DNA of 64,000 bases from Bacteroidota bacterium (GCA_016717325.1 JADKFV010000002.1:135661-199660); one strand, 5' to 3'; counted from the first letter of the stretch, positions 264 to 61,886 are shown. Notes: generated from the sequence alone by a model not told the origin. Numbers and translations are program-made.

Positions 264-3200
264 ATGAAAAAAAGTTACGAAAATCTTTCTTATGGGACTT
301 CCCATAATTCAGGATTCAAATCGAAAAGCTTTAAAAAAGCTTTCGCAATTGCTTCATTATTAATTGTAGTTCAACTTTCAAACAATGCTTGCGCAATTTC
401 CACAGCATCCGGTTGGGATACTCAAAAATCCGTGCAGAATCGAAATAATGTAGCTGATTGCCCCATTTTAAAATTAGTATCTGAACCTGCTTCAACTTAT
501 GATTTTAATCTCAATTTGTCAGGGTCTTCAAATGTTTTTCAATTTGATCATGTTTTTTGTTTACGGGAGCCAGGTCAAAATCTGACAATGGAAGCGGACT
601 TTAATATTTTAAACTCGAACATAAATCATCCAATCAAGCTTTCAGAAAATGAAAATAATTTAAAAATTAATTCCGATAGACTCGAGTTACAATCACTGCC
701 TATTGCAAACTGCTCATCAACATCAACCGGATGTAATGGAGGAAATACTGGTAGTGCATCGATTTCTGTAACTGGTGGTGTTGGCCCCTTCACTTATATT
801 TGGAATACAGGAGCTACAACATCGACTATTAGTAACTTGGCTGTAGGAACCTATACATCTACAGTAACAGATTCTAAAGGTAACACTTCATCTTGTAGTG
901 TTGCAATTGTTTCTGGGGGTGGCTTAACAGTATCATGTACTGGGACAAATATTAATTGCAATGGATCCAAAACAGGCGTTGCATTAATTTCGGCATCTGG
1001 TGGTGTTCAACCATATTCTTATCTTTGGAATAATGGCTCCAACTCTGATTTAATTGTGAACCAGTATGCTGGTACGTATACTGGTACAGTTACAGATGAC
1101 AAAGGATGCACTCGTTCGTGTTCATACACAATAACTCAACCAGCTCCTTTAGTTGTAAATGGAACTAAGACCGATGTTTCTTGTAATGGGTATAATAATG
1201 GCTCTGCTTCTGTTACTGCTACAGGCGGAACTCCACCTCTAACTTATATTTGGAATAATGGAGCCACTGTAGCCAGCATTAATGGCTTGTCACCAGGAAC
1301 ATATGTTGTAACCATAACCGATTCAAAAGGTTGTTCATTTATGTATATCGTTAGTAAAATTTCACAACCAACATTATTGGTAGCAACCTGCAGCGGCACG
1401 AATGTAACGTGCAAAGGCGCATCGACAGGTTCGGCCGCAGTAGTAGCAAGTGGAGGCACAGCCCCATATACGTACTTATGGAGCAATGGAAAAACCACAG
1501 CCTCGAACAACGGCTTATCGGCAGGCACATACACAGCGACAGTAACAGACTCAAAAGGCTGCACAGCAAAATGTTCATACACAGTAACAGAGCCAACCTA
1601 TGTAGTTGCAATGTGCAGTGGCACGAATGTAAATTGCTACGGAGGCAACAATGGCAGCGCAAGCGTAACAGCAAGTGGCGGTACCCCACCATACACATAC
1701 ATGTGGAGCAATGGTAAAACCACCTCATCAAACAGCAACTTATCAGCCGGCACGTATACAGCTACAGTTACCGATGCAAACGGATGTACAGCAACCTGTT
1801 CCTACACAGTAACGCAACCAACATTATTGGTAGCAACCTGCAGCGGCACGAATGTAACGTGCAAAGGCGCATCGACAGGTTCAGCAGCGGTGGTAGCAAG
1901 TGGCGGCACAGCGCCTTACACATACTTATGGAGCAATGGCAAAACGACATCAGCAAACAATACACTTGCCGCAGGAACATACACAGCCACTGTAACAGAC
2001 TCAAAAGGCTGCACAGCAAAATGTTCATACACAGTAACAGAGCCAACCTATGTAGTTGCAATGTGCGTGGCGTGTAATGCTGGTGCGTCCACCAACCTAT
2101 GTAGTTGAAGTGCAGTGGCACAATGTAAATTGCTACGAGGCAACAATGGCAGCGCAAGCGTAACAGCAAGTGGCGGCACACCATCATACACACATGTGGA
2201 GCAATGGTAAAACCACCTCATCGAACAACAATTTATCAGCCGGTACGTATACAGCTACAGTTACCGATGCAAACGGATGCACAGCAACCTGTTCATACAG
2301 TAACACAACCAACATTATTGGTAGCAACCTGCAGCGGCACGAATGTAACGTGCAAAGGCGCATCGACAGGTTCAGCAGCGGTGGTAGCAAGTGGAGGCAC
2401 AGCGCCTTACACATACTTATGGAGCAATGGCAAAACGACATCAGCAAACAATACACTTGCCGCAGGACATACACAGCAACAGTAACAGACTCCAAAAGGC
2501 TGCACAGCAAAATGTTCATACACAGTAACAGAGCCAACGTATGTAGTTGCAACATGCAGTGGCACGAATGTAAATTGCTACGGAGGCAACAATGGCAGCG
2601 CAAGCGTAACAGCAAGTGGCGGCACACCATCATACACATACATGTGGAGCAATGGTAAAACCACCTCATCAAACAGCAACTTATCAGCCGGCACGTATAC
2701 AGCTACAGTTACCGATGCAAACGGATGCACAGCAACCTGTTCATACACTGTAACACAACCAACATTATTGGTAGCAACCTGCAGCGGCACGAATGTAACG
2801 TGCAAAGGCGCATCGACAGGTTCAGCAGCGGTGGTAGCAAGTGGAGGCACAGCGCCTTACACATACTTATGGAGCAATGGAAAAACCACAGCCTCGAACA
2901 ACGGCTTATCAGCAGGAACGTACACAGCGACAGTAACAGACTCAAAAGGCTGCACAGCAAAATGTTCATACACAGTAACAGAGCCAAGCTATGTAGTTGC
3001 AACATGCAGTGGCACGAATGTAAATTGCTACGGAGGCAACAATGGCAGCGCAAGCGTAACAGCAAGTGGCGGCACACCACCATACACATACATGTGGAGC
3101 AATGGTAAAACCACCTCATCGAACAACAATTTATCAGCCGGTACGTATACAGCTACAGTTACCGATGCAAACGGATGCACAGCAACCTGTTCATACACAG

Positions 3201-6200
3201 TAACACAACCAACATTATTGGTAGCAACCTGCAGCGGCACGAATGTAACGTGCAAAGGCGCATCGACAGGTTCAGCAGCGGTGGTAGCAAGTGGAGGCAC
3301 AGCGCCTTACACATACTTATGGAGCAATGGCAAAACGACATCAGCAAACAATACACTTGCCGCAGGCACATACACAGCAACAGTAACAGACTCAAAAGGC
3401 TGCACAGCAAAATGTTCATACACAGTAACAGAGCCAAGCTATGTAGTAGCAACATGCAGTGGCACGAATGTAAATTGCTACGGAGGCAACAATGGCAGCG
3501 CAAGCGTAACAGCAAGTGGCGGCACACCACCATACACATACATGTGGAGCAATGGTAAAACCACCTCATCAAACAGCAACTTATCAGCCGGCACGTATAC
3601 AGCTACAGTTACCGATGCAAACGGATGCACAGCAACCTGTTCATACACTGTAACGCAACCAACATTATTGGTAGCAAGCTGCAGCGGCACGAATGTAACG
3701 TGCAAAGGCGCATCGACAGGTTCAGCAGCGGTGGTAGCAAGTGGAGGCACAGCACCTTACACATACTTATGGAGCAATGGAAAAACCACAGCCTCGAACA
3801 ACGGCTTATCGGCAGGCACGTACACAGCAACAGTAACGGACTCAAAAGGCTGCACAGCAAAATGTTCATACACAGTAACAGAGCCAAGCTATGTAGTTGC
3901 AACATGCAGTGGCACGAATGTAAATTGCTACGGAGGCAACAATGGCAGCGCAAGCGTAACAGCAAGTGGCGGCACACCACCATACACATACATGTGGAGC
4001 AATGGTAAAACCACCTCATCAAACAGCAACTTATCAGCCGGCACGTATACAGCTACAGTTACCGATGCAAACGGATGCACAGCAACCTGTTCATACACTG
4101 TAACGCAACCAACATTATTGGTGGCAAGCTGCAGTGGCACGAATGTAACGTGCAAAGGCGCATCGACAGGTTCAGCAGCGGTGGTAGCAAGTGGAGGCAC
4201 AGCGCCATATACGTACTTATGGAGCAATGGAAAAACCACAGCATCGAACAACGGCTTATCGGCAGGAACATACACAGCAACAGTAACAGACTCAAAAGGC
4301 TGCACAGCAAAATGTTCATACACAGTAACAGAGCCAGCGTATGTAGTAGCTACCTGTATCGGTACGAATGTAAATTGCTACGGAGGCAACAATGGCAGCG
4401 CAAGCGTAACAGCAAGTGGCGGCACACCACCATACACATACATGTGGAGCAATGGTAAAACCACCTCATCAAACAGCAACTTATCAGCCGGTACGTATAC
4501 AGCTACAGTTACCGATGCAAACGGATGCACAGCAACCTGTTCATACACAGTAACACAACCAACATTATTGGTAGCAACCTGCAGCGGCACGAATGTAACG
4601 TGCAAAGGCGCATCGACAGGTTCAGCAGCGGTGGTAGCAAGTGGAGGCACAGCGCCATATACGTACTTATGGAGCAATGGAAAAACCACAGCCTCGAACA
4701 ACGGCTTATCGGCAGGAACGTACACAGCAACAGTAACAGACTCAAAAGGCTGCACAGCAAAATGTTCATACACAGTAACAGAGCCAACCTATGTAGTTGC
4801 AATGTGCAGTGGCACCAATGTAAACTGCTATGGCGGCAACAATGGCAGCGCAAGCGTAACAGCAAGTGGCGGCACACCATCATACACATACATGTGGAGC
4901 AATGGTAAAACCACCTCATCAAACAGCAACTTATCAGCCGGCACGTATACAGCTACAGTTACCGATGCAAACGGATGCACAGCAACCTGTTCATACAAGG
5001 TAACGCAACCAACATTATTGGTAGCAACCTGCAGCGGCACGAATGTAACGTGCAAAGGCTCATCGACAGGTTCGGCCGCAGTAGTAGCAAGTGGAGGCAC
5101 AGCGCCATATACGTACTTATGGAGCAATGGAAAAACCACAGCATCGAACAACGGCTTATCGGCAGGAACATACACAGCGACAGTAACAGACTCAAAAGGC
5201 TGCACAGCAAAATGTTCATACACAGTAACAGAGCCAACCTATGTAGTTGCAATGTGCAGTGGCACGAATGTAAATTGCTACGGAGGCAACAATGGCAGCG
5301 CAAGCGTAACAGCAAGTGGCGGCACACCATCATACACATACATGTGGAGCAATGGTAAAACCACCTCATCGAACAACAATTTATCAGCCGGTACGTATAC
5401 AGCTACAGTTACCGATGCAAACGGATGCACAGCAACCTGTTCATACACAGTAACACAACCAACATTATTGGTAGCAACCTGCAGCGGCACGAATGTAACG
5501 TGCAAAGGCGCATCGACAGGTTCAGCAGCGGTGGTAGCAAGTGGAGGCACAGCGCCTTACACATACTTATGGAGCAATGGCAAAACGACATCAGCAAACA
5601 ATACACTTGCCGCAGGCACATACACAGCAACAGTAACAGACTCAAAAGGCTGCACAGCAAAATGTTCATACACAGTAACAGAGCCAACGTATGTAGTTGC
5701 AACATGCAGTGGCACGAATGTAAATTGCTACGGAGGCAACAATGGCAGCGCAAGCGTAACAGCAAGTGGCGGCACACCATCATACACATACATGTGGAGC
5801 AATGGTAAAACCACCTCATCAAACAGCAACTTATCAGCCGGCACGTATACAGCTACAGTTACCGATGCAAACGGATGCACAGCAACCTGTTCATACACTG
5901 TAACACAACCAACATTATTGGTAGCAACCTGCAGCGGCACGAATGTAACGTGCAAAGGCGCATCGACAGGTTCAGCAGCGGTGGTAGCAAGTGGAGGCAC
6001 AGCGCCTTACACATACTTATGGAGCAATGGAAAAACCACAGCCTCGAACAACGGCTTATCAGCAGGAACGTACACAGCGACAGTAACAGACTCAAAAGGC
6101 TGCACAGCAAAATGTTCATACACAGTAACAGAGCCAAGCTATGTAGTTGCAACATGCAGTGGCACGAATGTAAATTGCTACGGAGGCAACAATGGCAGCG

Positions 6201-9200
6201 CAAGCGTAACAGCAAGTGGCGGCACACCACCATACACATACATGTGGAGCAATGGTAAAACCACCTCATCGAACAACAATTTATCAGCCGGTACGTATAC
6301 AGCTACAGTTACCGATGCAAACGGATGCACAGTAACCTGTTCATACACTGTAACGCAACCAACATTATTGGTAGCAACCTGCAGTGGCACGAATGTAACG
6401 TGCAAAGGCGGATCGACAGGTTCGGCCGCAGTAGTAGCAAGTGGAGGCACAGCGCCTTACACATACTTATGGAGCAATGGAAAAACCACAGCCTCGAACA
6501 ATGGCTTATCGGCAGGCACGTACACAGCAACAGTAACAGACTCAAAAGGCTGCACAGCAAAATGTTCATACACAGTAACAGAGCCAAGCTATGTAGTAGC
6601 AACATGCAGTGGCACGAATGTAAATTGCTACGGAGGCAACAATGGCAGCGCAAGCGTAACAGCAAGTGGCGGCACACCACCATACACATACATGTGGAGC
6701 AATGGTAAAACCACCTCATCGAATAACAATTTATCAGCCGGCACGTATACAGCTACAGTTACCGATGCAAACGGATGCACAGCAACCTGTTCATACACTG
6801 TAACGCAACCAACATTATTGGTAGCAAGCTGCAGCGGCACGAATGTAACGTGCAAAGGCGGATCGACAGGTTCAGCAGCGGTGGTAGCAAGTGGAGGCAC
6901 AGCGCCTTACACATACTTATGGAGCAATGGAAAAACCACAGCCTCGAACAACGGCTTATCAGCAGGCACCTACACAGCAACAGTAACAGACTCAAAAGGC
7001 TGCACAGCAAAATGTTCATACACAGTAACAGAGCCAAGCTATGTAGTAGCAACATGCAGTGGCACGAATGTAAATTGCTACGGAGGCAACAATGGCAGCG
7101 CAAGCGTAACAGCAAGTGGCGGCACACCACCATACACATACATGTGGAGCAATGGTAAAACCACCTCATCAAACAGCAACTTATCAGCCGGCACGTATAC
7201 AGCTACAGTTACCGATGCAAACGGATGCACAGCAACCTGTTCATACACTGTAACGCAACCAACATTATTGGTAGCAAGCTGCAGCGGCACGAATGTAACG
7301 TGCAAAGGCGCATCGACAGGTTCGGCCGCAGTAGTAGCAAGTGGCGGCACAGCGCCTTACACATACTTATGGAGCAATGGAAAAACCACAGCCTCGAACA
7401 ACGGCTTATCAGCAGGCACGTACACAGCAACAGTAACAGACTCAAAAGGCTGCACAGCAAAATGTTCATACACAGTAACAGAGCCAAGCTATGTAGTAGC
7501 AACATGCAGTGGCACGAATGTAAATTGCTACGGAGGCAACAATGGCAGCGCAAGCGTAACAGCAAGTGGCGGCACACCACCATACACATACATGTGGAGC
7601 AATGGTAAAACCACCTCATCAAACAACAATTTATCAGCCGGCACGTATACAGCTACAGTTACCGATGCCAATGGATGTACAGCAACCTGTTCCTACACAG
7701 TAACGCAACCAACATTATTGGTAGCAACCTGCAGCGGCACGAATGTAACGTGCAAAGGCGCATCGACAGGTTCGGCCGCGGTGGTAGCAAATGGAGGCAC
7801 AGCGCCTTACACATACTTATGGAGCAATGGAAAAACCACAGCCTCGAACAACGGCTTATCGGCAGGAACATACACAGCGACAGTAACAGACTCAAAAGGC
7901 TGCACAGCAAAATGTTCATACACAGTAACAGAGCCAAGCTATGTAGTTGCAATGTGCAGTGGCACTAATGTAAATTGCTACGGAGGCAACAATGGCAGCG
8001 CAAGCGTAACAGCAAGTGGCGGCACACCATCATACACATACATGTGGAGCAATGGTAAAACCACCTCATCGAACAACAATTTATCAGCCGGCACGTATAC
8101 AGCTACAGTTACCGATGCCAATGGATGTACAGCAACCTGTTCATACACTGTAACACAACCAACATTATTGGTAGCAACCTGCAACGGCACGAATGTAACG
8201 TGCAAAGGCGCATCGACAGGTTCAGCAGCGGTGGTAGCAAGTGGAGGCACAGCGCCTTACACATACTTATGGAGCAATGGCAAAACCACAGCCTCGAACA
8301 TACGGCTTATCCGCAGGCACATACACAGCAACAGTAACAGACTCAAAAGGCTGCACAGCAAAATGTTCATACACAGTAACAGAGCCAAGCTATGTAGTAG
8401 CAACATGCAGTGGCACGAATGTAAATTGCTACGGAGGCAACAATGGCAGCGCAAGCGTAACAGCAAGTGGCGGCACACCACCATACACATACATGTGGAG
8501 CAATGGTAAAACCACCTCATCAAACAGCAACTTATCAGCCGGCACGTATACAGCTACAGTTACCGATGCAAACGGATGCACAGCAACCTGTTCATACACT
8601 GTAACGCAACCAACATTATTGGTAGCAACCTGCAGCGGCACGAATGTAACGTGCAAAGGCGCATCGACAGGTTCAGCAGCGGTGGTAGCAAGTGGAGGCA
8701 CAGCGCCTACACACATACTTATTGAGCAATGGAAAAACAACAGCCTCGAACAACGGCTTATCAGCAGGCACGTACACAGCAACAGTAACAGACTCAAAAG
8801 GCTGCACAGCAAAATGTTCATACACAGTAACAGAGCCAAGCTATGTAGTTGCAACATGCAGTGGCACGAATGTAAATTGCTACGGAGGCAACAATGGCAG
8901 CGCAAGCGTAACAGCAAGTGGCGGCACACCACCATACACATACATGTGGAGCAATGGTAAAACCACCTCATCAAACAGCAACTTATCAGCCGGCACGTAT
9001 ACAGCTACAGTTACCGATGCAAACGGATGCACAGCAACCTGTTCATACACTGTAACGCAACCAACATTATTGGTAGCAAGCTGCAGCGGCACGAATGTAA
9101 CGTGCAAAGGCGGATCGACAGGTTCGGCCGCAGTAGTAGCAAGTGGAGGCACAGCGCCTTACACATACTTATGGAGCAATGGAAAAACCACAGCCTCGAA

Positions 9201-12200
9201 CAATGGCTTATCGGCAGGCACGTACACAGCAACAGTAACAGACTCAAAAGGCTGCACAGCAAAATGTTCATACACAGTAACAGAGCCAAGCTATGTAGTA
9301 GCAACATGCAGTGGCACGAATGTAAATTGCTACGGAGGCAACAATGGCAGCGCAAGCGTAACAGCAAGTGGCGGCACACCACCATACACATACATGTGGA
9401 GCAATGGTAAAACCACCTCATCGAATAACAATTTATCAGCCGGCACGTATACAGCTACAGTTACCGATGCAAACGGATGCACAGCAACCTGTTCATACAC
9501 TGTAACGCAACCAACATTATTGGTAGCAAGCTGCAGCGGCACGAATGTAACGTGCAAAGGCGGATCGACAGGTTCAGCAGCGGTGGTAGCAAGTGGAGGC
9601 ACAGCGCCTTACACATACTTATGGAGCAATGGAAAAACCACAGCCTCGAACAACGGCTTATCAGCAGGCACCTACACAGCAACAGTAACAGACTCAAAAG
9701 GCTGCACAGCAAAATGTTCATACACAGTAACAGAGCCAAGCTATGTAGTAGCAACATGCAGTGGCACGAATGTAAATTGCTACGGAGGCAACAATGGCAG
9801 CGCAAGCGTAACAGCAAGTGGCGGCACACCACCATACACATACATGTGGAGCAATGGTAAAACCACCTCATCAAACAGCAACTTATCAGCCGGCACGTAT
9901 ACAGCTACAGTTACCGATGCAAACGGATGCACAGCAACCTGTTCATACACTGTAACGCAACCAACATTATTGGTAGCAAGCTGCAGCGGCACGAATGTAA
10001 CGTGCAAAGGCGCATCGACAGGTTCGGCCGCAGTAGTAGCAAGTGGCGGCACAGCGCCTTACACATACTTATGGAGCAATGGAAAACCACAGCCTCGAAC
10101 AACGGCTTATCAGCAGGCACGTACACAGCTACAGTAACAGACTCAAAAGGCTGCACAGCAAAATGTTCATACACAGTAACAGAGCCAAGCTATGTAGTAG
10201 CAACATGCAGTGGCACGAATGTAAATTGCTACGGAGGCAACAATGGCAGCGCAAGCGTAACAGCAAGTGGCGGCACACCACCATACACATACATGTGGAG
10301 CAATGGTAAAACCACCTCATCAAACAGCAACTTATCAGCCGGCACGTATACAGCTACAGTTACCGATGCAAACGGATGCACAGCAACCTGTTCATACACT
10401 GTAACGCAACCAACATTATTGGTAGCAAGCTGCAGCGGCACGAATGTAACGTGCAAAGGCGCATCGACAGGTTCGGCCGCAGTAGTAGCAAGTGGCGGCA
10501 CAGCGCCTTACACATACTTATGGAGCAATGGAAAAACCACAGCCTCGAACAACGGCTTATCAGCAGGCACGTACACAGCAACAGTAACGGACTCAAAAGG
10601 CTGCACAGCAAAATGTTCATACACAGTAACAGAGCCAAGCTATGTAGTTGCAACATGCAGTGGCACGAATGTAAATTGCTACGGAGGCAACAATGGCAGC
10701 GCAAGCGTAACAGCAAGTGGCGGCACACCACCATACACATACATGTGGAGCAATGGTAAAACCACCTCATCGAATAACAATTTATCAGCCGGCACGTATA
10801 CAGCTACAGTTACCGATGCAAACGGATGCACAGCAACCTGTTCATACACTGTAACGCAACCAACATTATTGGTAGCAAGCTGCAGCGGCACGAATGTAAC
10901 GTGCAAAGGCGCATCGACAGGTTCAGCAGCGGTGGTAGCAAGTGGAGGCACAGCACCTTACACATACTTATGGAGCAATGGAAAAACCACAGCCTCGAAC
11001 AACGGCTTATCAGCAGGCACGTACACAGCAACAGTAACAGACTCAAAAGGCTGCACAGCAAAATGTTCATACACAGTAACAGAGCCAAGCTATGTAGTAG
11101 CAACATGCAGTGGCACGAATGTAAATTGCTACGGAGGCAACAATGGCAGCGCAAGCGTAACAGCAAGTGGCGGCACACCACCATACACATACATGTGGAG
11201 CAATGGTAAAACCACCTCATCAAACAGCAACTTATCAGCCGGCACGTATACAGCTACAGTTACCGATGCAAACGGATGCACAGCAACCTGTTCATACACT
11301 GTAACGCAACCAACATTATTGGTAGCAAGCTGCAGCGGCACGAATGTAACGTGCAAAGGCGCATCGACAGGTTCAGCAGCGGTGGTAGCAAGTGGAGGCA
11401 CAGCGCCTTACACATACTTATGGAGCAATGGAAAAACCACAGCCTCGAACAACGGCTTATCAGCAGGCACCTACACAGCGACAGTAACAGACTCAAAAGG
11501 CTGCACAGCAAAATGTTCATACACAGTAACAGAGCCAAGCTATGTAGTTGCAATGTGCAGTGGCACGAATGTAAATTGCTATGGAGGTAGCAATGGCAGC
11601 GCAAGCGTAACAGCAAGTGGCGGCACACCATCATACACATACATGTGGAGCAATGGTAAAACCACCTCATCGAATAACAACTTATCAGCCGGCACGTATA
11701 CAGCTACAGTTACAGATGCAAACGGATGCACAGCAACCTGTTCATACACTGTAACGCAGCCAACACCATTGGTAGCAACCTGCAGCGGCACGAATGTAAC
11801 GTGCAAAGGCGCATCGACAGGTTCGGCCGCAGTAGTAGCAAGTGGAGGCACAGCGCCTTACACATACTTATGGAGCAATGGAAAAACCACAGCCTCGAAC
11901 AACGGCTTATCGGCAGGCACGTACACAGCTACAGTAACGGACTCAAAAGGCTGCACAGCAAAATGTTCATACACAGTAACAGAGCCAAGCTATGTAGTAG
12001 CAACATGCAGTGGCACGAATGTAAATTGCTACGGAGGCAACAATGGCAGCGCAAGCGTAACAGCAAGTGGCGGCACACCACCATACACATACATGTGGAG
12101 CAATGGTAAAACCACCTCATCAAACAGCAACTTATCAGCCGGCACGTATACAGCTACAGTTACCGATGCAAACGGATGCACAGCAACCTGTTCATACACT

Positions 12201-15179
12201 GTAACGCAACCAACATTATTGGTAGCAAGCTGCAGCGGCACGAATGTAACGTGCAAAGGCGGATCGACAGGTTCAGCAGCGGTGGTAGCAAGTGGAGGCA
12301 CAGCGCCTTACACATACTTATGGAGCAATGGAAAACCACAGCCTCGAACAACGGTTTATCGGCAGGCACGTACACAGCAACAGTAACAGACTCAAAAGGC
12401 TGCACAGCAAAATGTTCATACACAGTAACAGAGCCAAGCTATGTAGTTGCAACATGCAGTGGCACGAATGTAAATTGCTACGGAGGCAACAATGGCAGCG
12501 CAAGCGTAACAGCAAGTGGCGGCACACCACCATACACATACATGTGGAGCAATGGTAAAACCACCTCATCGAATAACAATTTATCAGCCGGCACGTATAC
12601 AGCTACAGTTACCGATGCAAACGGATGCACAGCAACCTGTTCATACACGGTAACGCAACCAACATTATTGGTAGCAAGCTGCAGCGGCACGAATGTAACG
12701 TGCAAAGGCGCATCGACAGGTTCAGCAGCGGTGGTAGCAAGTGGAGGCACAGCACCTTACACATACTTATGGAGCAATGGAAAAACCACAGCCTCGAACA
12801 ATGGCTTATCAGCAGGCACGTACACAGCAACAGTAACAGACTCAAAAGGCTGCACAGCAAAATGTTCATACACAGTAACAGAGCCAAGCTATGTGGTTGC
12901 AACATGCAGTGGCACGAATGTAAATTGCTACGGAGGCAACAATGGCAGCGCAAGCGTAACAGCAAGTGGCGGCACACCATCATATACATACGTGTGGAGC
13001 AATGGTAAAACCACCTCATCGAATAACAACTTATCAGCCGGCACGTATACAGCTACAGTTACCGATGCCAATGGATGCACAGCAACCTGTTCATACACTG
13101 TAACGCAACCAACATTATTGGTCGCAAGCTGCAGCGGCACGAATGTAACGTGCAAAGGCGGATCGACAGGTTCAGCAGCGGTGGTAGCAAGTGGAGGCAC
13201 AGCGCCTTACACATACTTATGGAGCAATGGAAAACCACAGCCTCGAACAACGGCTTATCAGCAGGCACGTACACAGCACAGTAACGGACTCAAAAGGCTG
13301 CACAGCAAAATGTTCATACACAGTAACAGAGCCAAGCTATGTAGTAGCAACATGCAGTGGCACGAATGTAAATTGCTATGGAGGCAACAATGGCAGCGCA
13401 AGCGTAACAGCAAGTGGCGGCACACCACCATACACATACATGTGGAGCAATGGTAAAACCACCTCATCAAACAGCAACTTATCAGCCGGCACGTATACAG
13501 CTACAGTTACCGATGCAAACGGATGCACAGCAACCTGTTCATACAATGTAACCCAACCAACATTATTGGTAGCTAATTGCAGTGGAACACCAATATCTTG
13601 CAATGGAAAAGATAATGGCACTGCCAGTGTTAGTGCGACAGGAGGTAAACTTCCATACACTTACTTATGGAGCAATGGAAAAACAACCAGCACTATAATT
13701 GGACTTATGGCAGCTACATATTCAGTAACTGTAACGGATGCAAATGGCTGCGTTTCGAATTGTGTATATACTGTGACACAACCAACTCCATTGGTTGCTG
13801 TATGTAGCAAAAGCGGTATCTCTTGCTATGGTGGAAATAACAGTACAGCAACAATGTTTGTTTCAGGCGGCACACCGCCATATGCTTTCTTATGGAACAC
13901 AGGTGCAACCACATCAACTATTTCAGGTTTGTATGCGGGTAATTACACGGTTACTGTTACTGATGCAAATAACTGCCAATCGTCTTGTACATTGTTAATT
14001 GATCAGCCTGATTTGCTGACTGCAACCTGTACTGGTACAAATTTAACGTGCAATGGTGGGTCTACTGGTAGTGCGAATATTTCTGCATCTGGTGGTACTG
14101 GTTCGTACACATATTTGTGGAGTAACGGAGCAACAACAAGTGGCATTAGTAATCTTGGTGCAGGGGTCTATACTGCAACTGTAATAGACATCAACGGTTG
14201 CACAGCGTCTTGTGTAAGGACTATTACTCAGCCAGTTAGCATAGTAATAACAATGTCAGGTTCAAATGCAACATGTAATAATAATGGAACTGCACAAGTA
14301 GTAGCTGTTGGAGGTGTTCTTCCTTATACTTATCTATGGAGCAATGGCGCGACCACATCTTCTATTTCAGGTTTATTTGCAGGTACATATTCCGTAAAAG
14401 TTACTGATGCTGCAGGTTGTTCAAAAAATGGAACGTATACTGTAACACAATCTTCTTCTACGGTATTAACATTAACAGGAACAAATGTTCTTTGCTATGG
14501 TGCTTCAAATGGCACTGCCGTTGCTACAGCTGTAGGTGGAAGCCCGTTCACTTATTTATGGAGTAATGGAAAAACGACTAAGCAAATCGGTTCGTTATCT
14601 GCAGGCATCTACGCTGTAACTGTTACAAATAATTCCGGGTGTACATATACAGCTTCCATAAACATAACTTCACCATCTACATCACTCACTTGTCAGGCGT
14701 CAAGTACAAGTTCGCAAGGAGGTTCTTGTACAGGAACATTAACTGTTAGCTCAACTGGAGGAACTGCTCCATACACATATTTATGGAGTAATGGTGCAAC
14801 AACATGGAATGTTACCGGGGTTTGTGCTGGTCCGTATATAGTAACAGTTACAGATGCGAACGGATGCACATGCAGCAAAACAGTTAAGATAGATGCCGTT
14901 GTTGCTAAAGTTGGTTTTGATAGCCAATATATGCAATTAAGTTTGTCACCAAATCCAACCAGAGGATTAGTGAACATAAAATTTGTGACTGATGAAATTT
15001 TAAACTACACATTGAACATAATGGATGTAAATGGCAGAATTGTTTCAAGTGAAATGCGCCAAAGCGTAGAAGGGGAAAACACATTGTCAGTTGACTTAAG
15101 TACCCTAGATAAAGGTGTTTACCTTGTTAAGATTGATGCTGGGGGCTACACTCATTTCGCTCGAGTTGTCTTACATTAA
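264..15179 (+). CDS. Giant SprB-repeat cell-surface adhesin and T9SS cargo, about 4970 aa if read through. The frame is interrupted at about 2065-2110, 2296, 2465, 2497, 8290, 8705, 10085, 12335 and 13233-13262.
   Basis: Six consecutive ORFs in different frames have overlapping ends. All translate to the same ~75-aa SprB-type repeat: C-x-G-x-N-x-x-C-x-G..G.A.V.ASGG..PYTY.WSNG.T...N..L.AGTYT.TVTD..GC. There are about 63 repeats. The N-terminus (MKKSY...FAIASLLIVVQLSNNACA) is signal-peptide-like. The last 80 aa (LSLSPNPTRGLVNIKF...GVYLVKIDAGGYTHFARVVLH) match the T9SS C-terminal sorting domain. Confidence 0.8.
1365..13553 (+). repeat. Tandem array of about 27 copies of a 450-bp unit. Each unit encodes two SprB repeats. 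Copies differ at only a few positions per unit.
   Basis: Direct comparison of successive units, for example the motif caaccaacattattgg at 1365, 1815, 2306, 2756 and onward at 450-bp spacing up to 13106. Antisense ORFs of identical sequence recur every 450 bp in the ORF track. Confidence 0.9.
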
Positions 15180-15204
15180 AAGATTAGAATGAACTTTGAT
15201 AAGA

Positions 15205-15232
15205 AGAGCCTCGATTTGGGGCTCTTTTTTTT
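15205..15232 (+). terminator. Rho-independent terminator after the adhesin gene.
   Basis: Hairpin agagcctcgatttggggctct followed by T8, 25 bp after the stop codon. Confidence 0.6.
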
Positions 15233-15850
15233 GGGGCAAATAATTTTTCATATTTTTCTTTTCTCGAAAATCTAATTGTCTAGCACAATATGATAATGAA
15301 GCAATAACATAGATTAGTATACGATAAGCACTTAGACCATTGCGAAAAAAAGGTTAGATCAAACACGAATATTTTTATTGTGATAAACAAATTGTATTAT
15401 TTTACTTTTCAATTTTACGACTATTCTTGATTTGACTTTTTAGTTGGAGAATGAAAAGATGTTTTTATATGCACAGGAGTAAAAGGGATTTTAACCCAAA
15501 TTATACAATTGAAATTATCGATTGAACAATTATTAATTAAACCAACCCTTTTGGCTCCACTTTATTTCATCAAATGGGTGCGTTTCTAAATCGGGATTTA
15601 CCCAACTAATGGAGATAATTCGGCTCGTTCCTGACCTTCTATTTTATAATTTGTGTTCAAAATTGTACAGCTATAAAATAGATGCTTTCTATTTTATAAA
15701 TACAATTCATATAAAAGCAAAGCTTGGATTGCAAATTGATTTACAAACGAAAAGCAGGTAGAGCAATATTTGATTTCGGTTGTAGGCTCTGGAATTAAAC
15801 ATGTGGAAAAAAACGAATTACGGTACGACTATAAAAAGGATGGATTGATA

Positions 15851-15890
15851 GAAAAAGAAAAACCGGATGACTTTTTCAAATCATCCGGTT
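15851..15890 (-). terminator. Rho-independent terminator after the tlpA-like gene.
   Basis: Hairpin ccggatga/tcatccgg at 15863-15888. On the minus strand it is followed by tttttcttttt. Confidence 0.5.
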
Positions 15891-15914
15891 AAAAATAATA
15901 ATTACCCCTAATTT

Positions 15915-16475
15915 TTATTTTCCTTTTCTTGTTGTTATTAACTTTTCCAGGGCCTGTTCCAATGCTGGACCTCTTAAGTCTCTACCAACAATAATACCAT
16001 TTTCGTTTATTAAAAAATTAGTAGGAATGGACTGCACTTGGTAAACTGCAGCAGGTTTCGATTGCCATCCGCCCAGGTCGCTTACGTGATTAGGCCAATC
16101 AAGTTTGTCCGTTGCTATAGCCTTAACCCATTGGTCTTTATTTTGGTCGAGGGAAACATTAAATACAGTAAATCCCTTTGCTTTAGAATTAAACTTGGTG
16201 TCTTTATATTTTTGATAAGCAGCAACTACATTGGGGTTTTCCATTCTGCATGGGCGGCACCACGATGCCCAAAAGTCCAGCAAAACAATTTTACCTCTTA
16301 AAGATGACAAAGCAATTTCTTTACCTTCGGGGCTCATAAATTTCAAATCAACAGCTTTGTTGCCAACTTCAATGCCGGTAACAACCGATGCAGTTTTATT
16401 TTGAGGAACACTCATAAAGCTGTAGCCTAAAAAAGCGATAGCAACTGCGATAAAACCGAAACCTAATTTTTTCAT
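15915..16475 (-). CDS. TlpA/ResA-like periplasmic thiol:disulfide oxidoreductase (thioredoxin fold).
   Basis: Signal peptide MKKLGFGFIAVAIAFLG. Motif LLDFWASWCRPCRMENP has a CxxC in thioredoxin/TlpA context. Confidence 0.85.
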   Translation of the reverse strand: MKKLGFGFIAVAIAFLGYSFMSVPQNKTASVVTGIEVGNKAVDLKFMSPEGKEIALSSLRGKIVLLDFWASWCRPCRMENPNVVAAYQKYKDTKFNSKAKGFTVFNVSLDQNKDQWVKAIATDKLDWPNHVSDLGGWQSKPAAVYQVQSIPTNFLINENGIIVGRDLRGPALEQALEKLITTRKGK

Positions 16476-16595
16476 ATTTTTTTTGTAGTTTATAAATTTA
16501 AAGGGCCAAAGATAATGCCGTATTCTTAATCCAAAATATTTTTGCCTATCAATTAATGTAAACTACATTATTAGCTTTTTGAAAAGAGAAACGAA

Positions 16596-19101
16596 CTATA
16601 ATTTTATTATTTTTTTTGTTGCTTGTCCTTCTGCTGTCGAAATTCTAAGAGTATACACTCCGGCTTCCACATCTTGTAAATTAATTAATTGCTGATTGAC
16701 ACCCTTTGAAAATTCTCTATTGGTAATTGTTTTTATTAATTTTCCAGACAAGTCATATAATGATAAATTGACATTTGTTGATGACGAAAGATGAAAGCTT
16801 ATAACACTATTTTCAAGTGCCGGATTAGGTTTAGCTTGCATCAAAGTTACCCCGCTGTTATTGTTTTGATGTTGATTAAAAACCGATAATGGATCATCGC
16901 CCGAAACATCGCGCAACCATAACCCTCGTCCATAGGTGGCAACTAAAACATAAAACTTACCATTTATTGCTGTGCTATCTATATAGTCGAGTTTGCTCAT
17001 TTCAACCCGCTTTGGTAATCCATTTGCCCACTTTACCCAAGTGATGCCGCCATCAAGTGTTTTAAAGCCTCCCTCGGTTGTTGCAACATAATATATGTTT
17101 GCGTTAATGGGAGATGGCAGTATATCTGTGATTGGCACATTGGGTAAATTTCCGCTTATGTTTGTCCATGTCAAGCCAATATCATCTGAACGAAATACTT
17201 TGTTACCTGCTGCGGCTGCGCTAATGTCTGTCACAGTGGCAAATACTCTATCGGGCAACACAAAGTCAGCCTGAATCTGATTGAATCCTAAATTGGGTAG
17301 CGTTCCGGTTCGGTCAACCCATTGCAATAAATTTCTATCGCGTACTTTTACTTTCGAGTTGACAAGGGTGTAAATGCTTGGTTCGCTAGAACCGCTTTGA
17401 TCAATACTGAAACTATAAATTTCGGAAGTAAAGGCATTGTTTGGGTTAACCTTTTCCCAGGTTACACCAAAATCGAAAGTACGATAAAGATAACTGCTTG
17501 CATTTGTATAAAGCGCACCCGTGTTATTATCTAATCTTAATGCTGGATACCATTGTCCGTTAGGGTCGATGCCCGTTGTATTATCTTGCCACGACATGCC
17601 ACCGTTGGTGCTAAACTGCCTGTGAAATGCGTGAGTGCCTCCATAAACACCAACAGCAGTATAAAGATTCAATGGAAAGAAAGGATCAGAAGCAACACCG
17701 CCTCCATCGCCTCCTGTAGTAGTCCAGTTGGGCACATTGGTTGATCGGTATACAGTGCCATTGTCCTGAGTTCCTCCAAGCATAGAACTTGCCGAAGCCT
17801 TCGATGCTGAACAATCAATATATTGTGTAATAGGTAAATTATTGGTCGCAGTATTTATTGTATTAAAAGAGAAGCCATTATTTTTAGAAATAAAAACGCC
17901 ACCATCGTTACCAATTATGCACCAATTATTTGCAGCAAAAGCTACAGCATGCTGATCGGCATGACGGCCATCTACTTCATTAAAAATATTTCCATCGGTG
18001 GTACGAAATATAGAAACACCACCAGCCATTACAATATTGGGATCGGTTGGATTAACGCCTATCGAATTATCATACCATCCTTGATTACCATGAAAATTTG
18101 AATTGGCCGGGTTTCCATTTATATCATTACCAAGAACACATTTTGTCCATGTGGCACCATCGTCTACAGATTTGTAAATTCCTTTTGTGCCATTGCTTGT
18201 GTTTTCGGTAATGTTTGCATAAATAATGGATGGTGACGAAAGGGCAATGTCAAGGGCCGTTCGTCCTACATTGGTAGCTGGTGCCGAAGTGTTTTTTATA
18301 AAATTTAAGCCACCATCGGTAGACCGGTAAATGCCCGAATTCCATTGTGCCAATACTATGTTATTCGGGTTGGTCGGATTTACAAACCACATCTGTAATT
18401 TCACCTTGCTTTGTTCTTGTCCATGTTACACCTCCATCATCCGACTGATAAAGTCCTGTATTGGCAGCGGCATATAATTTCAGAGGATTGCCATTTATTA
18501 TTATCAACTCATAAAAAGTACTGGGCTGTGGTGTGAGCGTTAATTTTGTCCAAGACACACCTTTATCGATAGTTTTCCAAAGGCCACAACCTCCCGACAA
18601 GGCACCTTCACCAGTACCAAGAAATATCACATCAGAGTTGTTTGGGTCGGTGGCAAAAGCGCCTCCGGCATTGCAATCGAGGTGGTCACTCAACGATTGA
18701 TTTACAATTGTTCCATTTGAGAGTGAATCTATTTGCCACAAACCACCCGTTGCACTTAATATCCGCATGGTGCCTTGTTTAGTGTATTCTACATCGGTAA
18801 CACGGCCGGAGTATACTATGGTAGAACCCGGAATAATACCAAAAGGGCCAATATTTTCCCATGCATTTACTGTAGCAACTTTTCCATTAGAAAGGCTTTG
18901 TTCATCGGGCATGTTTTTTATTTCGTCTGCAGCGCGTTGCAGGTATTCAGGGGTAGCATTGCCGTATGGATAATACCACCGCTGGCGGAGCATTTTTTCT
19001 TTCCATGGGCCTTTAATTATTGAAGGTGGTGTGAGTGCACTTTCCTGTGCCATTGCCATTGAAGCAATTGAGATTAAAAACAGAGTAAGCGTTTTTTTCA
19101 T
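16596..19101 (-). CDS. BNR/Asp-box repeat (beta-propeller, sialidase/sortilin-like) protein with T9SS C-terminal domain. One frameshift at about 18361-18404.
   Basis: Two overlapping minus-strand ORFs: 18361-19101 carrying the signal peptide, and 16596-18404. Repeated S-x-D-x-G-x-T/W-W motifs (DGGVTWTRT, DGGLNF, DGATWTKC, DFGVTWEKV, DIGLTWTNI, DGGITWVKW). The C-terminus VTLMQAKPNPALENSVISF...GVYTLRISTAEGQATKKIIKL is T9SS-CTD-like. Confidence 0.75.
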
Positions 19102-19367: not shown

Positions 19368-21068
19368 ATGGCGAATACAGCAACAGTAAAAACAGGACAT
19401 CCAAAAGGACTTTGGGTTCTATTCGGAACAGAAATGTGGGAGCGCTTTAACTTCTACGGAATGCGAGCAATCTTAACCCTTTTCATGATTAATTCTTTGC
19501 GAATGGATGAAGCAAATGCCACAATAATTTACGGAGGGTTTCTTGGTCTTTGTTATTTAACACCAATGTTGGGCGGTTTTATTTCCGATCGCTTTTTTGG
19601 AAATAGAAACTGTATTTTATTGGGTGGTTTGATGATGGCAGTGGGGCAATTTTTACTATTTACTAGCGCCAGTATTTTTTCTACCAATTTACCTTTGGCC
19701 AATACTTTGATGTGGAGTGCATTAGGAATAATTATTTTTGGAAATGGATTTTTCAAGCCAAACATTTCGAGCATGGTTGGTAGTTTATATCCGAAGCAAG
19801 AAAAAAATAAATTAGATACTGCCTTCACTATTTTTTATATGGGCATTAACCTTGGTGCATTTTTAGGACAATCCATTTGTCCATTGGTGGGTGATGTAGT
19901 GGATAAAGGAGGGATACGCGATGTGCATGCTTTTAAATGGGGATTTTTGGCGGCATCCATTGCAATGGTACTAGGTACTTTGGTTTTCTATTTTTTGAAA
20001 AACAAATATGTTGTTAATCCCGAAGGAAAAGCATTAGGTGGTTTGCCTAAGCATAATGATAGCTCAGATTATGAAGTAGGTGAAGCCCAAAAAGCTGTAT
20101 TCACTCCAAAGGCTTTAGTTATTTCTGTTTTATCATTTGTAGCATTGTTTTTTGTTTTTAGATATTTATTAGGTGGCACCAACTTGGTAAAAACCATTAT
20201 TTATCCAATAATTTATGCCAGTGGAATTACATTGGCTGGGTTGATTATTTCGGATAAATCGCTAACCAAAATTGAACGCGATAGAATAAGCGTAATATAC
20301 ATTATTTCATTTTTTATTATCTTTTTTTGGGCAGCTTTTGAGCAAGCGGGTTCCTCACTAACTTACATAGCCGCAAATCAAACTGATCGTACATTTTTGT
20401 TTGGGTGGAAAATGCCGGCTTCAATGGTTCAAGTATTTAATGGTATATTCGTTTTTGCATTCGCCTTTCCATTTAGTTTACTGTGGGATAAATTAAGGGC
20501 GATGGGTAAGGAGCCTATTTCACCAGCAAAGCAGGCAATTGGTTTGGCAGTAATGGCATTAAGCTATTTTATACTTGCGCATAATGTAAAAGATTTAGGC
20601 AGCGCAGGAATGCTTGCCATCAAATGGTTAATATTATTATACTTAATTCAAACCTTTGCCGAGTTATGTTTGTCTCCAATTGGGCTTTCTTTAGTTGGTA
20701 AATTAGCACCAAAAAGATTCGCATCCTTATTATTTGGGGTGTTCTTTATTGCTAATGCAGCGGGGTATGCTTTGTCGGGAACTTTGGGTGCATTGATGCC
20801 TGCAACTGGCGATAAATTTGAAAAAGCACAAAAATTGGGTATCGATTTACAAGGGGTTTTGGATAAAACATATATCCCAACCTCAGAACAAACTGCTGCC
20901 TTGGCCAATGCAAAAATAAGCGACACTTACCCTACCATTATCGGAATGACCATTCATAATTTATTCGAATTTTTAATGATTTTTGCTGTGGTATCGGGCA
21001 TTGCCGCTATTATTTTGTTTGCATTAACACCAATTTTAAAACGGTTGATGCATCAGATAAAAGAGTAA
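19368..21068 (+). CDS. POT/PTR2-family proton-dependent di/tripeptide transporter.
   Basis: N-terminal GLWVLFGTEMWERFNFYGMRAILTLFM carries the PTR2 signature. It is a polytopic membrane protein of 566 aa. Confidence 0.9.
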   Translation: MANTATVKTGHPKGLWVLFGTEMWERFNFYGMRAILTLFMINSLRMDEANATIIYGGFLGLCYLTPMLGGFISDRFFGNRNCILLGGLMMAVGQFLLFTSASIFSTNLPLANTLMWSALGIIIFGNGFFKPNISSMVGSLYPKQEKNKLDTAFTIFYMGINLGAFLGQSICPLVGDVVDKGGIRDVHAFKWGFLAASIAMVLGTLVFYFLKNKYVVNPEGKALGGLPKHNDSSDYEVGEAQKAVFTPKALVISVLSFVALFFVFRYLLGGTNLVKTIIYPIIYASGITLAGLIISDKSLTKIERDRISVIYIISFFIIFFWAAFEQAGSSLTYIAANQTDRTFLFGWKMPASMVQVFNGIFVFAFAFPFSLLWDKLRAMGKEPISPAKQAIGLAVMALSYFILAHNVKDLGSAGMLAIKWLILLYLIQTFAELCLSPIGLSLVGKLAPKRFASLLFGVFFIANAAGYALSGTLGALMPATGDKFEKAQKLGIDLQGVLDKTYIPTSEQTAALANAKISDTYPTIIGMTIHNLFEFLMIFAVVSGIAAIILFALTPILKRLMHQIKE

Positions 21069-21121: not shown

Positions 21122-21942
21122 TTATTTTAGATTTTCGTATACCCTAAAATAATCAATCTCAAACGAACACGGAAAAACGGTTTGGGCATTTGGAGGGCCA
21201 TCATAAAATCCTCCAACAGCAAGGTTCAAAAATACTGGCATAGGAAGTTGTGGCACATGCGTTGTTTTACATGCACCAATTGACCATTAAAATAATATTC
21301 GATTTTGTTCGGTGTCCAATTTACACCGTAGGTAAAAAAATCATCAGAAAGGTCGAGTTTTTTATTGAAAAACCACCATCCATTCAACTTGGGAATTATC
21401 ATTGCATTGTCGCTCAAATCGCCTGTAGCAGCCTTCCAAAAATTATTTACCCAATAGCGCGAAGTGTTGCTGCCACCAAATTCGAAAACATCAATCTCCT
21501 GATAGTAAGTTCCGCTACCTTTATAAAACCAAAATGCCGGCCACAAACCTTTTCCGGTTGGCACTTTTGCGCGTACTTCAAAATATCCAAACGAGAATTC
21601 TTTCTTCGAAATAATTTGGCCCGATGAATAATTGAATCTTTCGTATTTTTCTTTGTGTGCAGTGAGTTTTAAAATTCCGTTCTCAATAAAAATGTTTTTT
21701 TTGCTATTGCGATAATATTGTTCTTCGTTACCATGCTCACCGGTATTTACTTTCCAGGCAATGGTGTCTAAATTATTATGATTAAACTCTTCGCTCCACA
21801 CCATTTTAGATTTGACAACAGCATTACCTTTTGAATTTGGCAGAACAGTTTTTACGCGTTGGGCAAAAGTGCTTTTTGATAAAAGCGTGAAACAAAATAT
21901 TACAACAATTTTTTTCATAACGGAACGATTTTGGATATGCAA
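21122..21942 (-). CDS. GH16 beta-glucanase, laminarinase-like, secreted. The last ~40 aa lie in another frame; the frameshift is at about 21262-21270.
   Basis: Signal peptide. Catalytic motif YQEIDVFEF (E-x-D-x-x-E). After the ORF-track stop, a -1 frame continues as THVPQLPMPVFLNLAVGGFYDGPPNAQTVFPCSFEIDYFRVYENLK*, the canonical GH16 C-terminus. Confidence 0.75.
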
Positions 21943-26500: not shown

Positions 26501-27119
26501 CAATGCAAAAACGACTGAGGATTTGGCAAATCTTGTTGCAGGTACGTATACCTGCACTGTTACAGATATAAACGGATGCACAACAACCATGTCGCGCACT
26601 GTTACGCAGGGTGCTCAGATTACAATGACTTTTACGAAAACTGATGCTACAGCACCATTGTTTAATAATGGAATTGCAACATGTTTTCCTGCAAATGGTT
26701 TTCCAACTTACAGGTATACATGGAATACCACACCATCTAAAACCACACAAACTATTACAGGCTTAACTGCCGGAGTATATGTTGTAACAGTAAAAGACAA
26801 TAAAAAATGCGCACGTAATGGAAGTGTAACTATTGCTGCCTTGCGTATTGGTGGCGATGAGGCTATTGGAAATAATATTTCGGCAGCACCAAATCCGTCT
26901 CATGGATTATTTGCAATTAGTTTGAATAGCAAAAACAATGAAATGATTGATGCAAATGTGTACGATGTTACCGGAAGACTTGTGCAAACCAATGCTGTTT
27001 ATTTGCAAAAGGGGATAAACGAATTTGATATTGATTTGACCTCTCAAATGTCAGGTTTATATTTCCTCGAAATGAAAAATGAAAACCGAAGAGAAATAAT
27101 AAAGCTCACGGTAAAATAA
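23535..27119 (+). CDS. Secreted M4 (thermolysin-family) zinc metalloprotease with proprotein-convertase P-domain, SprB repeats and T9SS C-terminal domain.
   Basis: HELTHGVT (HExxH) followed by NESFSDIFG (the third zinc ligand, Glu). An FTP/PepSY-like propeptide lies upstream. The P-domain-like segment is NADLNIKLKAPNGSEIIL. SprB repeat: NNCYGGKSGTVNLTPGGGTLPFSFLWSNAKT. C-terminus SAAPNPSHGLFAISL...GLYFLEMKNENRREIIKLTVK. Confidence 0.9.
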   Translation: MNKKNYSVILLSIFLGIKVNAQNAQIVVSDSKANTALLEYAEGKNVPCYITFKDNYNLAPQMAFIELSDELSIRAEDTWKIMRSEQDDIGYTHHRYQQYYKGIKVEQGEFIIHEKNNRTVSANGDFIDNIDLSIIPGVTRTAALNFALADINATTYKWQFAAEENWYKQIMNNPKATMYPKGELVIIRLNNNIATKEKQRLAWKFDIYTHDPNGRWFVYVDANTGDILDKVDRICEFVAPGIANTKYSGVQPIVSDSLGPNNFRLRDYSRGAPIATYDMNKGTSYGSAVDFTDDNNVWDSITNQDNAAYDAHHGAEKTWDYFNSVHGRNSYDNFGSPLISYIHYSNNYNNAFWNGSVMTYGDGNGSTFSPLTTIDICGHELTHGVTGNTSNLVYSYESGALNESFSDIFGTCIDFFAFPGSANWKLGEQCYTPGTSGDALRHLDNPNAASDPDTYLGAFWWTSSGDNGGVHTNSGVQNFWFYLLSQGGTGTNDVSFNYNVSGIGMANARLIAYRNNAYYLTSGSVYADARRYSIIAAADIFGPCSNEMIQTNNAWNAVGVTGTFSGNPLATATNSGITCEGTTVNLTSAGGVSFFWSGPGAYSSTLQNPQLSEITSAQSGTYTVTVTDANACSGSVTTQVNLHTRPTLSGAGISLCPAATGMLDPIAAAYGGGGPAFTTANPAIIAIPDNNSTGIQSPITIATPANASEVISVEIDSLDHTWNADLNIKLKAPNGSEIILANGVGGSGDNFDNTIFSATATNVIGSSGNNTSPFNGTYAPQQSFSNLTGAATGTWNLKVIDAYDLDAGSLRGWKITIASANQVTTYAWSPSLGLSSTTQATPSVSVLDSATYTVVVTDNKGCTNSKSMAVNLFPLATATVTTSNILCGGSATGSLTLNPVTGVSPFSYSLDNVSFVPGNTFATLPAGSYTAYIKDVNNCNTENYGVTITENNPLTATATGANNNCYGGKSGTVNLTPGGGTLPFSFLWSNAKTTEDLANLVAGTYTCTVTDINGCTTTMSRTVTQGAQITMTFTKTDATAPLFNNGIATCFPANGFPTYRYTWNTTPSKTTQTITGLTAGVYVVTVKDNKKCARNGSVTIAALRIGGDEAIGNNISAAPNPSHGLFAISLNSKNNEMIDANVYDVTGRLVQTNAVYLQKGINEFDIDLTSQMSGLYFLEMKNENRREIIKLTVK

Positions 27120-45488: not shown

Positions 45489-45508
45489 TTTTTAAAACAT
45501 ATATCAAA

Positions 45509-47089: not shown

Positions 47090-47124
47090 TTTTGGGTTTT
47101 TTCTCTAATAGAAAATTTGAACAT

Positions 47125-47162
47125 AGCCGCAAAGCACTTACACTTTGCGGCTTTGTTTTTTT
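47125..47162 (+). terminator. Rho-independent terminator after susD.
   Basis: agccgcaaag...ctttgcggct hairpin followed by ttgttttttt. Confidence 0.55.
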
Positions 47163-47180
47163 ACTTTATACTATAAATAA

Positions 47181-57408: not shown

Positions 57409-57463
57409 TTATTTTTTTTTATGAAATGATAAGAATTGATTTTTTTATTTTTTGGAATTTTAA

Positions 57464-58783: not shown

Positions 58784-58803
58784 ATTATTTTGTTTTAATT
58801 TTT

Positions 58804-61885: not shown

Positions 61886-61886
61886 T

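Follow-up and report, generated by a model that had tools for sequence, protein, structure and literature searches.

A giant SprB-repeat surface protein gene with a homogenised 450-bp tandem array in a Bacteroidota bacterium, interrupted in its assembly by probable sequence errors

Introduction

The surface protein SprB of Flavobacterium johnsoniae has a C-terminal domain (CTD) of type B and is held by its cognate PorP-like partner SprF, which is encoded adjacent to it (PMC9143113). Cargo of type IX secretion systems (T9SS) with a type A CTD is cut by the sortase PorU and linked to anionic lipopolysaccharide (PMC9143113). GhpA of Aureispira sp. CCB-QB1 has a hook module of 1,400 aa and assembles into heptamers, and its gene lies ahead of those for PorP/PorE homologues (bioRxiv 10.1101/2024.01.29.577165). 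Here we describe a gene for a giant SprB-repeat surface protein in a stretch of 64,000 nucleotides from a Bacteroidota bacterium (GCA_016717325.1, JADKFV010000002.1:135661-199660), referred to as the window. The protein resembles SprB in its repeat family, its giant size and, as far as the sequence predicts, its secretion by the T9SS and its filamentous location on the cell surface (PMC9143113; bioRxiv 10.1101/2024.01.29.577165). We are fairly confident that the locus encodes one giant surface fibre, that its repeat array is homogenised by recombination and that the frame changes interrupting the gene are errors of the assembly.

Giant adhesins with near-identical units occur elsewhere, among them Marinomonas MpIBP, the Bap/Esp-type proteins and staphylococcal Ebh. 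They share runs of immunoglobulin (Ig)-like spacers that expand and contract by recombination, and their genes are routinely mis-assembled from short reads. They differ from the present protein in belonging to other repeat families and other phyla and in using type I secretion or sortase routes.

Organisation of the gene

The protein is most likely a surface fibre that consists, in this order, of a putative signal peptide, an orphan domain at the tip, 63 Ig-like SprB repeats and a type A T9SS sorting domain (Table 1). The repeats were delimited with Tandem Repeats Finder and with a hidden Markov model (HMM) that was built from the 75-aa repeat and scanned over all three forward frames. Tandem Repeats Finder reported a period of 450 bp at 2092-13573 with 25.5 copies, 96% matches and 0% indels at array scale, and assigned an older part of the same array to 1363-2047; at the half-period of 225 bp the matches amounted to only 74%. 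The HMM counted 3 + 54 + 6 repeats in the gene, those of the array scoring ~143 bits each. The Pfam SprB repeat PF13573 matched throughout, with E-values between 7e-69 and 2e-103 on three open reading frame (ORF) pieces. An earlier interpretation made from the DNA without database searches (the sequence-only reading) had proposed about 27 near-identical 450-bp units, each encoding two 75-aa SprB repeats, between three N-terminal and six C-terminal repeats that are strongly diverged. The HMM recovered the array at exactly the proposed coordinates with two repeats per unit, and the flanking repeats obtained the lower scores listed in Table 1.

Each 450-bp unit is composed of an A and a B half-unit, which are ~75% alike, and the units are ~96% identical to one another. 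Unit comparisons covered the 25 full units at 2211-13456. Between 3 and 28 positions separate each unit from the consensus, the mean pairwise difference is ~15-20 per 450 positions, and 77 columns are variable. Two pairs of units are identical and non-adjacent (2659 and 5809; 6709 and 9411). The gradient expected under concerted evolution was observed, with 96% identity between units against ~74% between half-units and still weaker similarity among the flanking repeats. No period above 450 bp was found in the window array; slight dips at lags of 6-7 units are due to block duplications.

Every unit additionally yields a 127-aa ORF in another plus-strand frame and a 136-137-aa ORF on the minus strand, both with start codons (2709-13019). 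These ORFs were rejected as genes, being by-products of a stop-poor repeat read in other frames, and would raise naive gene counts.

Table 1 Coordinates of the SprB-repeat gene, its parts and frame changes, and of other genes broken in the window (positions in nucleotides from the start of the window)
Feature	Position	Strand	Evidence or remarks
Whole giant SprB-repeat surface-protein gene	264-15179	+	ORF and frame maps; termini as in intact syntenic orthologues
N-terminal leader, putative signal peptide	264-395	+	Suggested by translation; hydrophobic stretch …KKAFAIASLLIVVQLSNNACA
Orphan N-terminal (distal tip) domain, ~100 aa	396-695	+	Library scans
Three diverged N-terminal SprB repeats	696-1337	+	HMM, 64-76 bits; translation
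Homogenised array	1365-13553	+	Repeat HMM; 54 high-scoring SprB repeats, i.e. 27.1 units of 450 bp
Six diverged C-terminal SprB repeats	13554-14885	+	HMM, 45-94 bits; translation
T9SS type A C-terminal sorting domain and stop codon	14946-15179	+	Residues 586-660 of the last ORF
Scar	2067-2210	+	~25 nt garbled (2067-2091), then ~120 nt with roughly six single-base deletions
Three indels in unit 2211-2658	2300-2495	+	-2 at ~2300, -1 at ~2469, +1 at ~2495; frame 1 to 2
+1 (T) in unit 8059-8509	8302	+	Frame 2 to 3
+1 (A) in unit 8510-8960	8709	+	Frame 3 to 1; absent from L002
-1 in A5 run, GGAAAAACC to GGAAAACC, unit 9861-10309	10083	+	Frame 1 to 3; absent from L002
A5-to-A4 deletion (GGAAAAACC run), unit 12110-12558	12332	+	Frame 3 to 2; absent from L002
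A5-to-A4 deletion and one-base loss, unit 13009-13456	13231 and 13278	+	Frame 2 to 1 to 3; both absent from L002
BNR/Sortilin T9SS protein, 834 aa	16596-19101	-	Split by an extra A at 18384; intact in L001
GH16	21125-21942	-	Frameshift at 21269; G after T4 run missing
carA	28110-29206	-	Its two domains separated at an A-run near 28645
Extracytoplasmic function (ECF) sigma factor	38305-38855	-	Split between regions 2 and 4 near 38590, G4T4/A8 run
Alpha-amylase	47181-48823	+	Broken twice, A5 and T5 runs, near 48020 and 48185

Interrupted reading frame

Once repaired, the gene would encode ~4,960 aa, and the present assembly departs from this frame eight times. The intact single 15-kb gene that had been assumed from the sequence is not found in the window, where the coding sequence shows these eight changes and, at 2067-2210, a garbled scar. 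Successive open stretches on the plus strand extend over 231-2108, 2164-2658, 2486-8509 and 8238-8960 (frames 3, 1, 2 and 3) and over 8689-10137, 9861-12386, 12110-13456 and 13188-15179 (frames 1, 3, 2 and 3). The orthologues on short-read contigs are uninterrupted. Two of them, which are syntenic and have the same N- and C-termini, are P0001 (1058 aa) and the gene of contig L034 (1358 aa); in the short-read assemblies of the same species the units that were retained read through as intact ORFs, of 1058 aa in contig L001 and of 1358 aa in L034.

The indels were located by aligning every unit to the unit consensus (Table 1). The indels of the array are each confined to a single unit. Several are situated in short base runs, and three are the same A5-to-A4 deletion recurring in non-adjacent units. 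The scar adds a net 43 nt to its unit and shifts the frame from 3 to 1. The substitutions between units are of another kind. They comprise 58 synonymous and 25 nonsynonymous types and no stop codon, which, over 112 synonymous and 335 nonsynonymous sites, corresponds to a ratio of nonsynonymous to synonymous change (omega) of ~0.14 in the SprB frame. The array is therefore coding and under selection. Such a bias towards synonymous sites is not expected of sequencing error, nor would an omega of ~0.14 persist in a decaying pseudogene.

A sister locus of the same species, L002, is contained in a long-read metagenome-assembled genome (MAG; NCBI GCA_016721785.1) and is 96.8% identical to the window in this region. 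In 4.9 kb of array aligned between the two, none of five window indels was present in L002 and none of six L002 indels in the window. An A5-to-A4 deletion occurs in L002 as well, in a different unit, and L002 continues cleanly past the position of the window's scar. The MAG is demonstrably error-bearing, because the essential genes rplF, secY and rpsD are broken: all three are uncalled on the L002 contig (L033 3781-4358, 5912-7240 and 9288-10001) whereas five short-read contigs of the species contain them intact. Errors are spread unevenly over the L002 array, which in alignment with the window shows ~47 gap openings per 5.4 kb in the 5' half (7645-13028) and 15 per 8.5 kb, flank included, in the 3' half (13024-17917).

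Ordinary genes of the window are broken, too (Table 1), and at every site whose sequence was inspected the break lies in or beside a short base run. Six such breaks fall on ~49 kb of unique sequence, compared with nine clean indels and the scar in the 12.2-kb array. Homopolymer indels that require short-read polishing are a known trait of older Nanopore assemblies (PMC9262707). Polishing probably failed in the array because short reads could not be placed uniquely there, so that errors became concentrated in it. Taken together, residual indel errors of a long-read assembly are the most likely origin of the frame changes, as the pattern of the indels suggests, and the gene of the cell would then be one ORF of ~4,960 codons.

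A genuine pseudogene would offer another explanation, namely that real mutations built up in the present strain after the fibre had become dispensable. Large repeat genes often decay, no intact full-length copy of this one is known, and the eight frame changes and the garbled 5' junction would suit such a history. We nevertheless regard it as improbable, given the strong purifying selection on the substitutions, with no nonsense change among them, and the occurrence of all indels as singletons of which none is common to the 96.8%-identical strain. Comparable breaks affect at least five unrelated genes of the window, carA and the ECF sigma factor included, which points to the assembly. Phase variation through slippage at the A5 runs was also rejected: the run is short, several frame changes are independent, and no single slip restores the frame.

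If the frame changes are assembly errors, long-read MAGs would accumulate such errors several-fold within near-identical arrays. Split genes would be the signature of an incompletely polished long-read assembly, and pseudogene calls anywhere in the genome of the window are suspect.

Probable recombination within the array

The variants of the units form a mosaic, in which patches such as columns 224-253 and 166-175 are common to non-adjacent units. Entire blocks are repeated as well. The block of units 2211 and 2659 recurs seven units on (4 and 0 differences), and the block of units 6259, 6709 and 7159 recurs six units on (7, 0 and 2 differences). The four-gamete test was failed by 40% of 703 informative site pairs, and the minimum number of recombination events after Hudson and Kaplan (Rm) was at least 13 within the 450-bp alignment. 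Mosaic and duplicated blocks are as expected from unequal crossing-over or gene conversion. Both processes acting between units would keep the 27 copies ~96% alike, and the same recombination could change the number of units and hence the length of the stalk.

Unit-by-unit orthology between the window and L002 is absent. Along the colinear diagonal, units differ by 9-29 substitutions, which is no better than in random pairs. Both loci contain the same unit types in another order and number; window units 2659 and 5809, for example, differ from L002 unit 15552 by 3 substitutions. In L002, Tandem Repeats Finder gives a period of 900 bp a slightly higher score than that of 450 bp. The concerted evolution postulated by the sequence-only reading is borne out by the mosaic variants and the duplicated multi-unit blocks of the unit alignment, with the reservation that mis-polishing could mimic the mosaic. 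The accompanying claim that the amplification is very recent did not hold: the units differ by ~4%, as much as the flanks do between strains, and unit types are common to the strains.

Several points weigh against the interpretation of the locus as one intact fibre gene with a recombining array and a faulty assembly. The indels were judged from their sequence pattern, and for none of them is an error proven. Two of the sites, the 43-nt scar and the -1/+1 pair at 2469/2495 (26 nt apart), are no simple homopolymer slips. The long-read origin of the window is itself deduced, and an intact full-length version of the gene is absent from a collection of 5.8 billion proteins. As for recombination, incompatibility between sites shows no decay with distance (p = 0.27 in a test resembling the pairwise homoplasy index, PHI), so that conversion tracts are indistinguishable from consensus mixing; consensus calling from misplaced reads is as able to create a mosaic as real gene conversion. 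The function as adhesin or stalk, finally, is drawn from analogy only.

Protein architecture and affiliation

The translated leader consists of a basic stretch followed by a hydrophobic stretch that ends with ACA, a putative Sec signal peptide. The tip domain gave no match in Pfam or NCBIfam and aligned only with the orthologue P0001, and an AlphaFold model of residues 1-143 was uninformative (predicted local distance difference test, pLDDT, < 50). This orphan domain presumably carries the binding specificity of the fibre. Three consecutive repeats were modelled with AlphaFold2 at a pLDDT of 97.9 and a predicted TM-score (pTM) of 0.83 as an all-beta fold with six strands per 75 aa. The best solved structures found with Foldseek were the GhpA stem and neck fragments 9flw, 9flp and 9flx (E-values 4e-8 to 7e-7; query-normalised TM-score 0.51-0.56; identity 19-24%), followed at nearly the same scores by Ig chains of titin, NCAM and Dscam. 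The C-terminal sorting domain scored 69.3 bits with PF18962 (cut-off 27) and 66.3 bits with TIGR04183 (cut-off 23). Only these type A models matched at the C-terminus, where the type B models TIGR04131 and PF13585 gave no match. By analogy with described type A cargo, the sorting domain would be removed and the new C-terminus fixed to the surface of the outer membrane. As a long stalk, the repeats would keep the N-terminal tip at a distance from the cell, and an adhesin role is suggested on the same grounds.

The sequence-only reading had described the product as an SprB-type adhesin or gliding protein. Its repeats are indeed SprB repeats, but unlike SprB the protein has a type A CTD and lacks a PorP/SprF-like neighbour. 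If the protein were the organism's SprB orthologue, a mobile adhesin driven by the gliding motor, SprB repeats throughout and a T9SS sorting signal would be expected, as found. Yet SprB repeats are also present in many unrelated T9SS cargo proteins, the CTD is clearly of type A (66 bits with TIGR04183, no type B match), and the neighbouring genes are rplQ and an AhpC-like gene and not sprC, sprD or sprF-like genes, which leaves orthology with SprB with little credence.

A relation to GhpA was considered for the structural reasons given above. The two proteins are alike in a stem of Ig-like repeats, which is a predicted structure in the present case, and GhpA, too, is a giant T9SS substrate with ~52 such repeats. 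A multimeric, rigid appendage that catches prey or particles in the manner of a grappling hook is nonetheless very unlikely here: the sequence identity to GhpA is low and generic Ig chains score nearly as well, the tip comprises ~100 aa in place of a 1,400-aa N-terminal hook module, and downstream PorP/PorE (ghpB/ghpC) genes are missing, no homologue of either being located within 10 kb in L001 or the window. Neither the hook nor the PorP/PorE homologues of GhpA were seen for the window protein, as judged from its sequence and model. In the strict sense, the fibre is neither an SprB orthologue nor a GhpA homologue.

Closer counterparts are P0256 of Flavobacterium suzhouense and P0295 and P0305 of Flavobacterium spp., which likewise combine long runs of 75-aa SprB repeats with a C-terminal PF18962 domain. 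Relatives of this kind are annotated as 'SprB repeat-containing protein' or 'T9SS type A sorting domain-containing protein'. Among 149 homologues with at least six repeats each, 35 hold at least one pair of repeats that are at least 90% identical at the protein level, and the median best-partner repeat identity among relatives is 56%. Largely homogenised examples are P0262 (34 repeats, mean best-partner identity 96%), P0102, P0280 from a Daejeonella isolate and P0291. Queried with the 1955-aa ORF, the collection of 5.8 billion proteins returned at most 52% identity outside the species and no intact full-length version. The species representatives of GTDB, scanned with P0001, contained no close relative and 30 distant SprB-repeat loci of at most 44% identity, none of which had an array at least 90% identical at the DNA level. 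Homogenised SprB arrays thus recur in relatives, and the array of the window is the extreme of a continuum of an already known kind. What sets it apart is the amplification of a two-repeat unit by ~27 times and the orphan N-terminal tip domain. Biologically, it adds one more giant T9SS surface fibre with a recombination-prone stalk array, from an uncultured lineage of the Bacteroidota.

Representation in other assemblies

RpoA, encoded 1.6 kb upstream of the gene, was 100% identical on 23 contigs. Ten of the places bearing it were fetched and aligned to the window. A MEGAHIT-style contig (L001/L035) crosses the array with ~1 unit and is 11,741 bp short of the window, and a contig of JGI 3300007584 (L034) crosses it with ~3 units. 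Five further contigs end 35-690 bp inside the array, at window equivalents of 1397 (Logan contigs L040 and L041), 1417 (Logan contig L037), 1894 (L039, NCBI GCA_044228155.1) and 2053 (L036, an ENA contig). The long-read MAG holds 22.8 units (L002) against 27.1 in the window, a comparison between two error-bearing assemblies in which the units have no positional orthology. One and the same species is thus represented by ~1, ~3, 22.8 or 27.1 units or by broken contigs, and the caution against trusting any assembly of this region for its copy number proved justified. Scans of JGI metagenomes with a 31-mer of the flank and with a 25-mer of the unit gave no match.

That the long array itself is an assembly artefact and the true gene the form of 1058-1358 aa with 1-3 units is scarcely credible: two short-read assemblies do give clean ORFs with 1 and ~3 units and a scar marks the 5' edge of the window's array, yet these two read-through assemblies disagree with each other, five other short-read contigs stop there as de Bruijn assemblers do at real tandem repeats, two independent assemblies of long-read type each hold more than 22 units, and the units vary in 77 columns, with synonymous changes favoured in a way that errors would not yield. 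With a real long array, the gene is publicly represented by proteins of 1058 aa and 1358 aa, by at least nine fragments in a string and by truncated contig ends. Genes of this type are accordingly apt to produce artefacts in annotation pipelines, in pangenome counts and when pseudogenes are called.

Base composition

The GC content amounts to 0.48-0.50 in the array and to 0.32-0.37 in the flanks. At the first, second and third codon positions it is 0.37/0.66/0.43 in the array versus 0.46/0.40/0.32 in ten other genes of the window. Threonine (20%), serine (13%), glycine (11.5%) and alanine (11%) are prominent among the encoded amino acids. The earlier attribution of the high GC content to Gly/Ala/Thr/Ser codons was partly right. 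Relative to the other genes, the excess lies mainly at the second position and results from the amino-acid composition. Relative to the diverged repeats of the same protein (N-terminal 0.38/0.50/0.23, C-terminal 0.40/0.57/0.26), it lies mostly at the third position; units 2660-8508 were compared here with 264-1362 and 13578-15176. Codons ending in T are nearly absent from the units (ACT 2%, GCT 7%, TCT 0%). This third-position excess could be a founder effect of the amplified unit or could stem from codon selection or from GC-biased gene conversion. A footprint of GC-biased gene conversion in a bacterial tandem array, together with real changes of unit number between strains (27 vs 23), is a rather unlikely combination; if true, the locus would offer a natural case of recombination determining how long a surface fibre is and at the same time altering its base composition. 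The prediction that a compositional island caller would be misled is well founded, for such a program would mistake the array for foreign DNA.

Genomic context

The gene is preceded by rpoA, rplQ and a 115-aa ORF and followed by an AhpC-like gene and genes for the BNR/Sortilin protein, a POT transporter and GH16. Rfam and tRNA scans of the window yielded nothing. The POT/MFS peptide transporter (19368-21068, plus strand) has 45% protein identity to its counterpart in L001 (13803-15338), in flanks that are 96-98% identical at the DNA level, as if a divergent allele or a homologous gene had been substituted for it. Another POT gene is located at 40452-41945.

Secreted cargo is encoded at unusual density in the 64 kb, where at least six genes carry a T9SS type A sorting domain at their end (13191-15179 for the fibre; 16596-19101, 23535-27119, 29461-31527, 32879-35065 and 53071-55623). 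Besides the fibre, the set comprises the BNR/Sortilin protein, an M4 peptidase, an Omp28-like protein, an S8 subtilase and a CBM35 protein. At 42480-48823, a SusC/SusD pair precedes the frameshifted alpha-amylase, which is SusG-like, and proteins with starch-binding modules (CBM20/48/53), a GH3 enzyme and CBM-bearing proteins are encoded on the opposite strand at 55816-62531. The two regions together probably constitute a glucan-utilisation locus.

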